Shown: piece after piece, positions 598 through 28,888 of the stretch
How the letters are laid out: every line of letters starts with the position of its first letter
Position numbering within the stretch: the stretch's first letter is position 1
Assembly (NCBI GenBank): GCA_963921275.4
Contig: OZ001293.3
Location: 6,560,001 to 6,624,000, forward strand
Direction: 5' to 3'
DNA from: an uncultured Hormoscilla sp.
GTDB taxonomy: Bacteria; Cyanobacteriota; Cyanobacteriia; Cyanobacteriales; Desertifilaceae
Length of the DNA stretch: 64,000 nt
Position numbers and translations under genes: made by a program
The notes under the pieces: model-generated
The model's database searches: none
Told to the model about the DNA's origin: nothing
What the model saw: only the letters and a program-made list of their open reading frames with translations

Positions 598-1180
598 CAT
601 CTCCCACCAGTCTATCGTTAGCGTCTGTTCCTTGACGAACATGTGCCAGGTATTTTAAATCTTCTTTGGTTGGCAAAATTGTTTCCAATAGGCTTTTGGG
701 GACATCAATAACCGTCACTTTATCGTCATCGTGTTGTCCTGGTTCTAAGTTGAAGCTGGGAAACTTAGCCCCATAACTACTTGTATTTTTGAGTTGCCCG
801 AGGGTAACAATCTGAGGCGTCGGCTTTTCGTCCTCGTCGAAGAGAAGCAAAGCCAACCAAGGAATGTCCCTGTCCTCGCTAGAACTGTCGATCGCTCTTT
901 CCCAAGGTAAGGTACTGCGGTTGAAAATAACATGGGGAAAGACGTTAGAGTGTTCCCCCAAACTCCCTGGCGGTGGGAAAACCCCATGGATGTCTTGGGG
1001 ATTTAGAGCGAAACGTTCTCCGGCGACATGAAATGTTTTCTCTCCCGTTGTAAAGGGAGCTTGACCTTGTATCTTGCTACTTTCAATAGTTTGAGTAACG
1101 GTAATCTTATATTCCCCATCTCTCAGTGCCGGTTGATGGTACTGGATGAATTCAACCTTAATAGGAGCTTGAGTAGTCAT
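598..1180 (-). pseudogene. 5' half of a conserved hypothetical gene (neighbour of the DUF6603-like gene), cut by the intron; 3' half at 27531-28888 (+)
   Basis: MTTQAPIKVEFIQYHQPAL...DRLVGD then GTGCG. Joining GAT G| to |AG TTA GCC (27531) gives in-frame DELAVVIGNRLP. Confidence 0.8.
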
Positions 1181-1268
1181 TGTAATTTTTGTCCTCGTTG
1201 CCAAAAAATTATCAAGCGATGCCCGAGGGGTTTTCGCCATGCGTCCCGAGGGCATCGTTGATTTTTGA

Positions 1269-2975
1269 TTATGCCTTTACTTGCGGGGCGACTAAAAAAT
1301 CAGCCGCTACCTCCCTATTCAGATCCACATCTTTGCTGGGTTCAAATCCTAAACTTTGCAATAAACTATCTCGACTGGAGTTCTGCACCAACGTATTGCG
1401 AATGCGATTTCTCAGTCCCTCCTCGTCGAGAGTGCTGGCTTGAAAAGGGGTTTGATTTTCCCAGCCATAACCAGTGGGAGCCGATTCCGGTTCGTATTGC
1501 AAATTGCGGCGGTTAACGGCATGAGTTTGACCCGGCGCTGGCGGTCTTCCGGGTTTTATTTCAAATCCCGATAGGGCATTTTCTATAAATTTCGTTCCGT
1601 TCAGATCGGGACTCAGGGATTTGCCCCACAGCCCTGCTGGCACCTTCTTCAAGATGGGGATATACTTAAAGTCGTCATCTTTAACAGGCGGCCCATCTTT
1701 TTTAGTTATCTTAATCCGGTGCTTGGTTGTTAAGTCTCCATCACTGACTTCCATTGAGCCAATGCCGAAGGCGGTGTTAGCTTGAACATGGCTGCCATCT
1801 GTCTTTGTTATCAAGATTGGGGATTCTCCAGTAGAGACTACCTTGTAAGCCTGTTTCGAGGGCACGATCGCATTCGTCACCAGGGATAAGTGCTTGGGAT
1901 TGATGACTCCCAGATCCGATTCGTTGTCGCCAATTTTCCGCACCAAGCCATCTTTAAAGGCAATAGTACATACCTTGTCGTCTTCCGGCAAGAAGGAATT
2001 TTTGAAGGTGCCCCAAGAAATTGGTTGGGGCTTTCGGGACGAACTGTCTCCGAAACTGACGTGAACTGAAACAATCCAGATATGGATGGTCGCCGTACCG
2101 CCAAATTCCGGTCCCCAGATATGTAGGTCTGCCCCCAACTCCACCGTAATGTGATGGGTGCCAAAGAAGTGAAAGGTGTAAGATGCGCCGATGTCGATAT
2201 AGATCCGGGCGTCGTAGTGATAGGGCTTCCAGGCAATTAAAAAGTCTGCCCCCACCTTGAACCATGCCTTGAGGGCACCGCTGTGATAGGTGGCGTCTAA
2301 ATGTCCTCCGGCCATGAAGGCATGAGAACATAGAGCAAAATAGGCATCTCCTTTGATGGTAATGTGACTGTCAACTCTCCAGTTAAATCCCAGCCTGGGA
2401 ACTTGGGGATAGTGGCTGGGTACCTGGAAACTGGGATGGTAGCCTCCCAGGGTGGTGACGAAATCTCCTCCGTGTTCTCCAGAGAACCAACAATAAAAGG
2501 CAAACCCTCCCGTGAGGTGACAGTTTCTCGACAAGAGATAGGAGGCGGAGGTCAGTTGGGCCCGCACTCCCAAAAAGCCTTCATCGGGAATAAAGCTGAC
2601 CTTCAAGACCATCTGGACTTCCGCGATAGGGGTAACGGTTTCTCCTTCCTCTGGCGTGGGCAAGATCGCCGTAGATAAACCGAGAATATCTAACTCAAAG
2701 CGGTTGCCGAAGGAAGCGGTCAGCAGGACGAAGGAGTCAACTAGCTTGAAGGAGTTGAACTTGATGCCGACGGCCAGGAAATATTCTCCCACTGCCGGAG
2801 AGATGTATTTGGCGATTTTGTCCAGTTCGGCAGCCAGGTTGCCAGTATCGCCCGTATTGTTGACTGCTTCTTCCACGAGGGGAAACTGAGCGACTTTCTC
2901 AATGGGCGGGACTCGCAAGTTGCGGTTGTAGCCGAAGCCCCCCGCCAAGCCGGTGATGAAGAAGAAGGAGGGGCC
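1269..2975 (-). pseudogene. C-terminal part of a large DUF6603-like protein, 5'-truncated
   Basis: 559-aa ORF preceded by GPSFFFITGLAGGFGYNR with no credible start; upstream replaced by repeats. Family assigned from memory of the motif. Confidence 0.6.
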
Positions 2976-3007
2976 CTTCGGTGATGCCCAAGATGAAAGT
3001 AAAATTT

Positions 3008-26157: not shown

Positions 26158-26311
26158 TATATAAGTAATTCTGGTCAGGGGATAAGTGAAGTCAGGCGAT
26201 CAATAGTTTGGGAGTTGATGTTATAGGAATGATTGCCTTCAATCTAGGGTTTTGTATAATTAGGAATTGTGTTGTGGTAGCCCGGAACTGAAATTAGAAG
26301 GAGAAGAACAG

Positions 26312-26603
26312 ATGAAAGCTTTGGTGCTCGATCGACCTGGAAGTCCGCAAACCTTGCGCTTGGCCCAAATGCCTGTGCCAGAAGCAGGGGCGGGAGAAGT
26401 ACGGGTGCAGGTGCATGCTGTAGGATTGAATCCAGTCGATTATAAGCTAGCAGCATCGGGTTCAGCCCGCTGGCAGTATCCGTTCATTCTGGGACTAGAT
26501 GTGGCAGGAGTTGTGAATGCTGTAGGTGCAGATGTCACCAAGGGGTGCTGGCGGTGTCGGCGGCTTTGCGGTTCAGCTAGCGTCACCGACTGGTTTAGAG
26601 GTG
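26312..26603 (+). pseudogene. 5' part of a zinc-binding dehydrogenase/quinone oxidoreductase with internal deletion, cut by intron
   Basis: MKALVL...GLNPVDYK...ILGLDVAGVV then GAGGVGGFAVQLA..GLEV directly before GTGCG. Confidence 0.8.
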
Positions 26604-27530
26604 GTGCGATTCGTTCCGGCATAAGCCAGTAGGTGAAAGTCGGGTCTGGCTCTATCAGCCAGATAACTCTGGTTATCATGGGGGTTAAATTCCCTTTCCC
26701 CAGGTACGGGGGTCGAGGGTACTACCGGTCGGAGGTGCTACGGAGCCACATCGCCGTGGTGCCTCCCGAGGACTTAAATGTAGGATAACTGGCAGCCTAA
26801 GCCGGTGACGCCGCTAGGAAAGATGCTAATGGTTAGAACAAGCGAACCTATGTAAACCTCGTTAACCAGAACCAGCGGAAGAAGGCTTATGCGCTTGCCC
26901 AAAAAGGGAAATGGTAGTTAGTATTAGCTCTTGCCTCTGGCTAATAACGTACTCAAAGAACTCCCGGGGTATAGTAGGAACCTAAAAGCATCGTGAAATG
27001 ATACTAGGGAACGAAGTAACCTCTCGTGAGCTGTCCCCATTTGGACAAGTTAGATGTAAAGCGCAAGCCACGAAGAAGAAGGATGTCCTAAGAAGCTAAC
27101 GCCCAGGGTAATGCCTGTGGATATGCAGACGTAGGACGGATATGGTAAGACACCCTTGGGAAAAGTAACCTTAATGTCACAGAACTAGGGAGAAATTCCG
27201 AAAGTACGAATTTTGGATTCAAATCTTAGCCAGGTAAAGTTCAGAGCCCTTACGAAAAGCGGAAAGCAGAATGGGGAAGATGTTAGTAAAGAGCGGCGAG
27301 TATGGTTTGCTGAACTATCCTCCGCGAACCTTCCGCAGCTCAGTACTTAAACGGTCCAATAGGATTGACCATAAGGGGTAAAATTTCAAAGGGTAAGGGA
27401 CAACGGGGGTAACCCCCAGTAATCCTACTGATGACAACAGCTTACCAACCAGTAGCCGTGTGCGGTTCCAGTCGCTCTTCAGGTTTCGCTCTTGGAGGGT
27501 TGGGGAGTGATTCCCAGCTCGACCCCGACC
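26604..27530 (+). mobile_element. ORF-less group II intron, inverted twin of 1-597; domain V damaged
   Basis: GTGCGA...CTCGACCCCGACC; DV reads AGCCGTGTGCGGTTCCAGTCGCTCTTCAGGTT. Confidence 0.93.
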
Positions 27531-28888
27531 AGTTAGCCGTGGTAATCGGCAACCGACTGCCCCAACTAACGGGAACGAGTACGGTGCATTTGGTTTCCCT
27601 AGAAGGGCGTTATAATGCCAGCGGTTTTGACTTCCAAGGAGCGGGAAGTAGCGATTCGATCCGCTTGGTTTCCCTGAAAAGCTGGAATTTTGCTTGCGTT
27701 AATCCACAACATACGTTTAAGGAAATTCTGAAACATCTCGACCAAAATCCCAGCACCTTGAGGTTGCCAAGCAGCACCAATAATCAAGTCGAGAGTTATT
27801 ATCAAATGGGTTACATCCCGCTTCCCCATTACTTGCGCCAGGGAGGCAAAACAATTTCCTGGTATCGCGGTCCTCTAAGCACTGGGCAAGACCAGACAGG
27901 AATAACCCTACCCGTTCGCGGTGCAGACCAATTAGTGCGCTACAACCCAGATAATGGAATGTTCGACGTATCCTACGCGGCGGCCTGGGAGTTGGGACGG
28001 TTGCTAGCCTTGCAAAATAAGGGATTTTCCGTCAGCTTATACCGCTGGAAGCGCAGCCACGCCCAACAACAGAAAATTGCCGAGAACCAACTGATTCATG
28101 CTCCCGGTTACTTACCCGTAACCAGTCAGTCAGCAAATTCTCTATCTATTCCCAGGGATATATCCACTTGGTTCCGAGACCTCAGCTTGCTAAAAGGCGT
28201 ACCCTTCGGCTACCTCGTTCCCGAGGAGAAGATGCTACCGATAGAATCAATTCGCTTTTTCTGGGTCGATCGCCTTTGGGTAGAGTGCTTGCTAGATGGT
28301 GCCTTTAGCATCGGTCGCGTGACGACCTCAGACCATCAACGAGATAGCCAGCATCCTACCAGTCCAGCAGAGAATCCACATCAAACGGTTACGGGTTTTT
28401 ACTGCGATCGGAGGTAGTTTCGGGATGGCCTGGTTTGCAGGTTGATGGATATAATGGGAGCGGTCAAAGCCGTCAACAACTCACCCTGCTGCGGATGGAT
28501 CGCTTATCGGCCAACGTATTAATCTGCTTGTTCGCGGGATAAATTACAGAGGTTGAGATTCATCAAAAGCCGGAAACAATCCACTTCGGCCTCGATCGTG
28601 ACAACAGCAACCCACCAGTCTTTTCTAAAGAGCTAAGGGACAGCGACGGCAGGCTTCACAGTGAATGGGTAGTGCGATCGATCCCCTGGAAGAACGATGA
28701 CGCGACAGCCAGGACGGTCGATATGCACGAATTCGCGCGATCGATCTACGATGCGCTACCGACTCAAGAGCAACGAACACTTGTATCTCCCAGCCCCAAG
28801 GAGTTCGAGTCATTTGTCTCCGCACACTTTGCTTTGGAGGCTATTGAAGGAGTCCAGGATGGTTAAGTTTAGAAAAGAGGGAAGCTAG
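27531..28888 (+). pseudogene. 3' half of the hypothetical gene begun at 1180-598
   Basis: LAVVIGNRLP...HLVSLEG...SYAAAWELGRLL...; frameshift near 28400, in-frame TAA near 28540. Confidence 0.8.

Follow-up and report, generated by a model that had tools for sequence, protein, structure and literature searches.

Multi-copy group II introns have been described as substrates of ectopic homologous recombination in the available text of PMC3522654 and PMC7947834 (citing Leclercq et al. 2011), and possible recombination between intron copies is mentioned in an accessible section of PMC5894124. For the relaxase chimeras at Ll.LtrB and Ef.PcfG (LaRoche-Johnston et al.), homologous recombination between near-identical introns was given as the cause in the available part of PMC7947834. 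In the cyanobacterium Thermosynechococcus elongatus, TeI3 introns lacking an open reading frame (ORF) retrohome with a helper reverse transcriptase (RT) and are moved by driver intron-encoded proteins, according to accessible passages of PMC2882425. Intron-mediated rearrangement and exon shuffling are known from this published work. In the present study, we analyzed a 64,000-nt stretch of an uncultured Hormoscilla sp. genome (the window; C1:6560001-6624000 on the main contig), in which two ORF-less group II introns in opposite orientation bound a 26-kb segment and interrupt a hypothetical gene and a dehydrogenase gene. The left flank of the window is also present in the assembly, so the prediction made for it by an earlier reading, the first-pass annotation, could be checked directly. 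The results pointed, with a probability of roughly 0.8, to a 26-kb inversion with a base-exact exchange of 3' exons, for which one crossover of the RecA type within the two introns is the likely cause.

The two introns were identical at 927 of 927 bases, with the left copy on the minus strand and the right copy on the plus strand, as the first-pass annotation had noted. Neither copy had an RVT_1 match, in keeping with their class as ORF-less introns. Both showed a GUGYG 5' end, precise insertion and complementarity between exon-binding sites (EBS, assigned by eye) and intron-binding sites (IBS), and their 3' end read ...CCCCGACC. GACTG and GAGRTG were present in the 5' flanks of both twins, and their spacers differed by a single base. 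This agreed with the earlier claim that the two flanks suit one EBS, and the flanks also matched the consensus of the 927-nt family (GAGGYA at -6 to -1 and GACTG near -15). Based on this consensus, a putative EBS1 (UGCCUC, 26932-26937, in a stem-loop) and an adjacent putative EBS2 (UAGUU, 26915-26919) were placed by eye; EBS1 would pair with IBS1 at 5 of 6 bases in the hypothetical exon and at 6 of 6 in the dehydrogenase exon. Five other end-to-end copies in the window were compared, of which three of similar length were 67-75% identical to the twins and two long ones less. The statement that the twins are identical while other copies are visibly diverged was correct for these five copies but not for the whole genome, where six of the 16 full-length copies of the family carried the identical sequence, five had 1-3 differences, and the rest were more distant. 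Long matches to intron copies elsewhere in the genome were 67-89% similar, and some of those copies matched RF00029; this similarity suggested that the 927-nt element is an intron-derived variant. No copy of the family in the congeners exceeded 83% identity in any long match, and the twin insertions and the inversion are accordingly lineage-specific.

The exchange could be followed to the base at the hypothetical gene. We compared the locus with four congeners (G001, G002, G003, and G004). The G004 orthologue is an intron-free gene of 633 aa, the DNA of which aligned to window 598-2976 and 27531-28595 in opposite orientations; the two alignments met at adjacent bases, so that 598 (-) and 27531 (+) are contiguous in this gene without any gain or loss of sequence. 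All four congeners supported the un-inverted order at one breakpoint, in agreement with what had been proposed: G004 gave the exact gene junction, in G002 and G003 a core block (7723-25031) ran on into the left flank of the window in reverse orientation, and in G001 position 29117 adjoined 7780. At the second breakpoint, G001 and G004 had other rearrangements, and in none of the four congeners was the dehydrogenase with its neighbouring insertion sequence (IS) detected at this site. The locus thus combined the features of an inversion between inverted repeats, namely highly similar repeats in opposite orientation, a reciprocal exchange of flanks without loss or gain, and the ancestral order in outgroups. 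Collectively, these sequence comparisons supported the view that the inversion is derived in this genome. The first-pass annotation had proposed that recombination between the copies flipped 598-26603; the inversion and the reciprocal exchange of 3' exons were upheld, base-exact against the congeners, with recombination as the inferred cause. The features are collected in Table 1.

Table 1. Features at and around the inverted segment (window positions unless prefixed with C1).
Feature	Position	Strand	Basis or remark
Inverted segment, 26,006 bp, between the twin introns	598..26603	.	Synteny, Pfam
Left ORF-less group II intron, 927 nt	597 down to C1:6559671	-	5' two-thirds are window 1..597
Right ORF-less group II intron, 927 nt	26604..27530	+	Identical to left copy
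Hypothetical gene, 5' exon, 219 codons + 1 base (...DRLVGD + G)	598..1255	-	Orthologue of the 633-aa G004 gene
Hypothetical gene, 3' exon, now behind the dehydrogenase 5' exon	27531..28888	+	Homology to G004
Dehydrogenase 5' exon, ADH_N domain, 292 nt	26312..26603	+	Pfam, tblastn
Dehydrogenase 3' half, frameshifted	C1:6559670 down to ~6559200	-	Directly after left intron; reads IYTCS...
IS with DDE transposase upstream of the dehydrogenase	25165..26162	-	Pfam, genome copy count
DUF6603 gene upstream of the hypothetical gene	1269..2948	-	559 aa vs 1202 aa in G004, hence 5'-truncated

The other interrupted gene encodes a quinone-oxidoreductase-like dehydrogenase. The right intron follows ...GLEV of its 5' exon and is itself followed by the 3' half of the hypothetical gene. 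The missing dehydrogenase 3' half had been predicted about 330 nt to the left of the window on the minus strand, and it was found there: it begins at C1:6559670 (-), 330 nt outside the window and right after the left intron copy, and the left flank continues the dehydrogenase (homologue residues 170-325). In a tblastn comparison with an intact Okeania homologue (L145, 326 aa), residues 1-77 matched 26312-26542 and residues 170-325 matched the left flank; GLEV corresponded to residues 166-169, and residues 169/170 fell exactly at the two intron edges. Both halves were damaged. The 5' exon had a 215-nt frameshifting internal deletion, which removed homologue residues ~77-149, and the 3' half had two net frameshifts. 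Because the deletion lies upstream of it, GLEV is outside the ATG frame of the dehydrogenase; the earlier placement of the right copy after GLEV was thus accurate in position and not in reading frame. With the query used, the four congeners yielded no orthologue, the best matches being paralogues at 44-45% identity. The 3' half of the hypothetical gene also carried lesions: one nucleotide was deleted at ~28396, a TAA stop followed in frame, and one nucleotide was inserted at ~28858. The same lesion letters were present in contigs of three runs (X1-X3; one organism and one study, containing 91-98% of sampled words). A homopolymer error had been considered for the T6-to-T5 frameshift and was rejected on the agreement of these three runs, which may be the source of the assembly.

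The capacity of the 927-nt family for splicing was then considered from the intron itself. Domain V (~27452-27490) retained the AGC triad, with a mispaired stem, and the family ends in ACC instead of showing the canonical domain V and an AY 3' end. Its domain V folded at -7.4 kcal/mol, whereas most other families reached values of about -14 to -18, and the region of domains V and VI folded no better than shuffled sequences (z 0.24). The 927-nt intron had no Rfam match at E<=1. These results suggested that splicing of the family is doubtful. Although none of the 16 full-length copies had a properly paired domain V, the family has spread recently and its ends are precise; the same mispaired 3' side of domain V was seen in a few further small intron families.

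The genome as a whole carries a heavy intron load, with at least 443 intron 5' ends and 407 full 3' ends, including families of 143, 73, 17, and 15. We surveyed the flanks of these copies against 2.41 Mb of congener DNA, a partial sample (G002, 1.78 Mb; G004, 0.57 Mb; G001 and G003 together, 56 kb) in which the G004 contig C16 was included because of the 26-kb inversion locus. Among the 37 simple copies with a unique mapped flank, 28 were plain insertions, one was a swap (the 26-kb pair), and eight were unresolved. When all starts were considered, 57 unique 5' flanks were mapped (40 collinear, 16 breaks, and one without a match). Two of the 16 breaks fell on a same-family copy, two were at the 402/440-kb site, two were at their own position, and ten had no explanation. 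The two breaks on a same-family copy hit the 3' flank of an inverted copy, that is, the 26-kb pair and the pair C1:2732012(+)/C1:839390(-). The latter consists of 2.4-kb copies, each overlapping an RVT_1 match, which are 99.6% identical and lie 1.9 Mb apart. G004 (C1:35011) joined the 5' flank of the 2732012 copy to the 3' flank of the 839390 copy base-exactly and was collinear on both sides, which indicated a further, much larger intron-bounded rearrangement, as judged from one junction. The inverted pair C1:402444(+)/440360(-) was 99.7% identical over 2381 nt, and the G002 order fitted an inversion, though not base-exactly. In total, 87 inverted same-family intron pairs lie less than 50 kb apart.

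Several candidate signals from this survey were not retained. Three of four unfiltered swap rows were dropped because their flanks were repeated and non-unique, and two non-native pairs (gaps of 714 and 3202 nt) were discarded because each combined a start from one family with an end from another. Block ends lay near introns more often (33 of 218) than did random unique positions (7%), but this signal was left unused, as the way in which blocks are built places their ends next to masked repeats. Same-family copies were present at both ends of only one of 109 synteny breaks, and genome-wide scrambling by introns was rejected as the overall pattern. The suggestion that introns act as portable homology gained support from the two further swaps, found or partly confirmed, but the rate was low. 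The survey supported the conclusion that introns act in this way, while explaining little of the rearrangement that separates these species.

The mechanism that we favor would have begun with retrohoming of each copy, with an RT helping in trans, into a site fitting its own EBS loops. One crossover between the copies by homologous recombination (the RecA pathway) would then have flipped the segment. Such a flip would be tolerated, since the interrupted genes are presumably dispensable and purA, the L25 gene and the other inner genes would merely be turned round and left intact. Reversion would be possible in principle at the same low rate, and nothing points to regulation. The genome encodes recA as an open frame of 381 aa and has 93 RVT_1 matches. 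Several observations weigh against this account. No read or contig crosses either intron, and the orientation of the segment rests on the assembly alone. The crossover point cannot be mapped because the copies are identical, and the dehydrogenase breakpoint appears exact by protein homology only, because no congener orthologue was found. Intron-associated rearrangements were called uncommon in the available text of PMC2504315, and in the catalogue of 443 starts the single break just mentioned was the only one of the 109 with same-family introns within 1.5 kb of both ends.

One alternative is a repeat-induced mis-assembly, in which the chromosome would have the ancestral order and the assembler would have mis-joined flanks at identical 927-nt repeats. 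Six 100% identical copies offer such an opportunity, a mis-join would likewise yield a reciprocal exchange, and at the right junction the unique sequence that separates the intron from an IS with 85 genomic copies is limited to ~440 bases. The contigs of the runs (four at the right junction and three at the left) end at the intron, none crossing it, and cannot orient the segment; contigs of three runs held all four exon-intron junctions, at a depth about that of the neighbouring unique DNA. The assembly as a whole (7.03 Mb in seven contigs) argues the other way, since its 6.88-Mb main contig contains no N although 25% of it is repeated, which would imply long reads. Copy-specific variants were also resolved, as 137 copies from the largest family fell into 61 haplotypes. 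When gaps of up to 25 kb were tolerated, 117 of the 443 catalogued copies sat inside blocks collinear with relatives, among them 45 copies of the 871-nt family and 16 of the 835-nt family, the two largest, and flank comparison with the congeners found no swap for these two families. Together with the collinearity of 40 of the 57 testable 5' flanks, these results made a mis-assembly unlikely. An origin during retrohoming, in which repair of the break at the second target used the first copy close by as a template or crossed over with it, would leave an end product indistinguishable from that of a later crossover. The twins, identical and adjacent, do resemble a donor and a fresh daughter; four distant copies are equally identical, however, and in the other two swaps the paired copies share 99.6-99.7% identity, with a distance of 1.9 Mb between the members of one pair. 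Bacterial retrohoming is also described as independent of homologous recombination in the accessible portion of PMC2504315, and we regard this origin as the least probable of all.

A further alternative is a reversible, possibly selected flip that toggles two gene states or gives a functional fusion of the dehydrogenase N-terminus to the hypothetical C-terminus after splicing. Inverted identical repeats would permit recombination back and forth, and at the right locus as assembled, computed splicing gave an in-frame ORF of 392 aa. That fusion is in frame because the 215-nt deletion shifted the dehydrogenase exon to the same phase, an agreement expected by chance in one case of three, and it ends where the 3' half is frameshifted. 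At the left locus, the swapped product would reach a stop after 226 aa. Without the inversion, the computed products were 514 aa, compared with 633 aa in G004, and 104 aa, compared with 326 aa in the homologue. Every one of the four spliced joins was thus shorter than the intact homologues, and neither orientation restores either gene. No site-specific recombinase was found among the 16 segment ORFs scanned against Pfam, a scan that left smaller ORFs and the rest of the genome outside. Taken with the mispaired, weakly folding domain V and its lack of an Rfam match, these results supported neither the reversible switch raised by the first-pass annotation nor a productive exon shuffling; a regulated switch is probably not present, and a toggling or fusion function is very unlikely. 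Only marginally more credible is a wider view, in which the swarm of hundreds of introns performs genome-wide exon shuffling and the locus expresses a spliced 392-aa chimera, with the damaged domain complemented in trans. If this held, recombination between copies in unrelated genes would make fusions joined seamlessly by splicing.

The genes of the inverted segment include purA and those for ribosomal protein L25, PfkB, PP2C, NfeD/SPFH, Fur, a glutamine amidotransferase, and a Na+/H+ antiporter, along with an intron-split adenosine deaminase and one IS. This IS (85 copies of >=800 nt at >=95% identity genome-wide) is another abundant substrate for rearrangement. The adenosine deaminase gene (3468-6270, -) was split by an intron within an intron (starts 3831/4289, ends 5123/5584), and it is not restorable by splicing because the nested introns lie on the opposite strand. 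In G004, the hypothetical gene is part of a cluster of large unannotated genes with DUF6603 (L017:2020-12407); the hypothetical protein matched no Pfam or NCBIfam family, and two further paralogues occur in the present genome (C1:2466971 and 2660800, 46-53% identity). Elsewhere in the window (34517-38018), an RT-bearing intron that starts at 35615 has a short ORF of 427 aa (36237-37520) and is closely preceded by an ORF-less intron (34517-35435). A Cas6 gene was found at 48955-49836, with no other cas gene among the nearby ORFs scanned. Psb27 is among the window genes, and the gene content is cyanobacterial. The 31-kb contig C3 had a G+C content of 17.6%, compared with 42-49% in the other contigs, and is possibly foreign to the genome.

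The process is known and the locus alone is ordinary; its value lies in a clean, base-exact natural example of introns reassorting the exons of unrelated genes, a step assumed in models of intron-driven exon shuffling. Two further swaps among about 42 other resolved sites, in a partial survey, suggested that such swaps are real but uncommon. Their rate offers an initial estimate of how costly recombination is, a cost proposed to restrict the number of intron copies in bacterial genomes. The load of at least 443 5' ends is far above the maximum of 101 among representative genomes in the available text of PMC8919778, although counting methods differ. A literature search with incomplete coverage of subscription papers found no description of group II intron copies at which unrelated bacterial genes had reciprocally swapped exons, and the available text of PMC6053426 contributed nothing relevant.

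Near-identical inverted copies at the breakpoints, reciprocal exchange of flanks and a derived state are shared with IS-mediated rearrangements in Escherichia coli (accessible text of PMC5009759), and the same breakpoint features are reported for Wolbachia group II introns (Leclercq et al. 2011, as described in portions of PMC3522654, PMC7947834 and bioRxiv 2023.10.25.563763). Unlike in those cases, the repeat here is a short intron that lacks an ORF and has a mispaired domain V, and both copies lie inside coding sequences, so that the rearrangement amounts to a base-exact exon swap. With the TeI3 introns, the locus shares cyanobacterial ORF-less copies, EBS-matched targets, twintrons, and RT-bearing relatives; the available part of PMC2882425 gives 28 introns for T. 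elongatus, far fewer than here, the word "rearrangement" is absent from its main text, and the ACC end and mispaired domain V set the 927-nt family apart from TeI3. Another close parallel is the Ll.LtrB/Ef.PcfG relaxase chimeras, which likewise represent exon shuffling at the DNA level with the junction exactly at the intron. As presented in the accessible sections of PMC7947834, those chimeras join orthologous genes at one site and are functional, whereas the present exchange involves unrelated genes on one chromosome, is reciprocal through an inversion, and leaves both genes broken. What is new here is the exact reciprocal swap between unrelated genes, together with a potential in-frame fusion of 392 aa.

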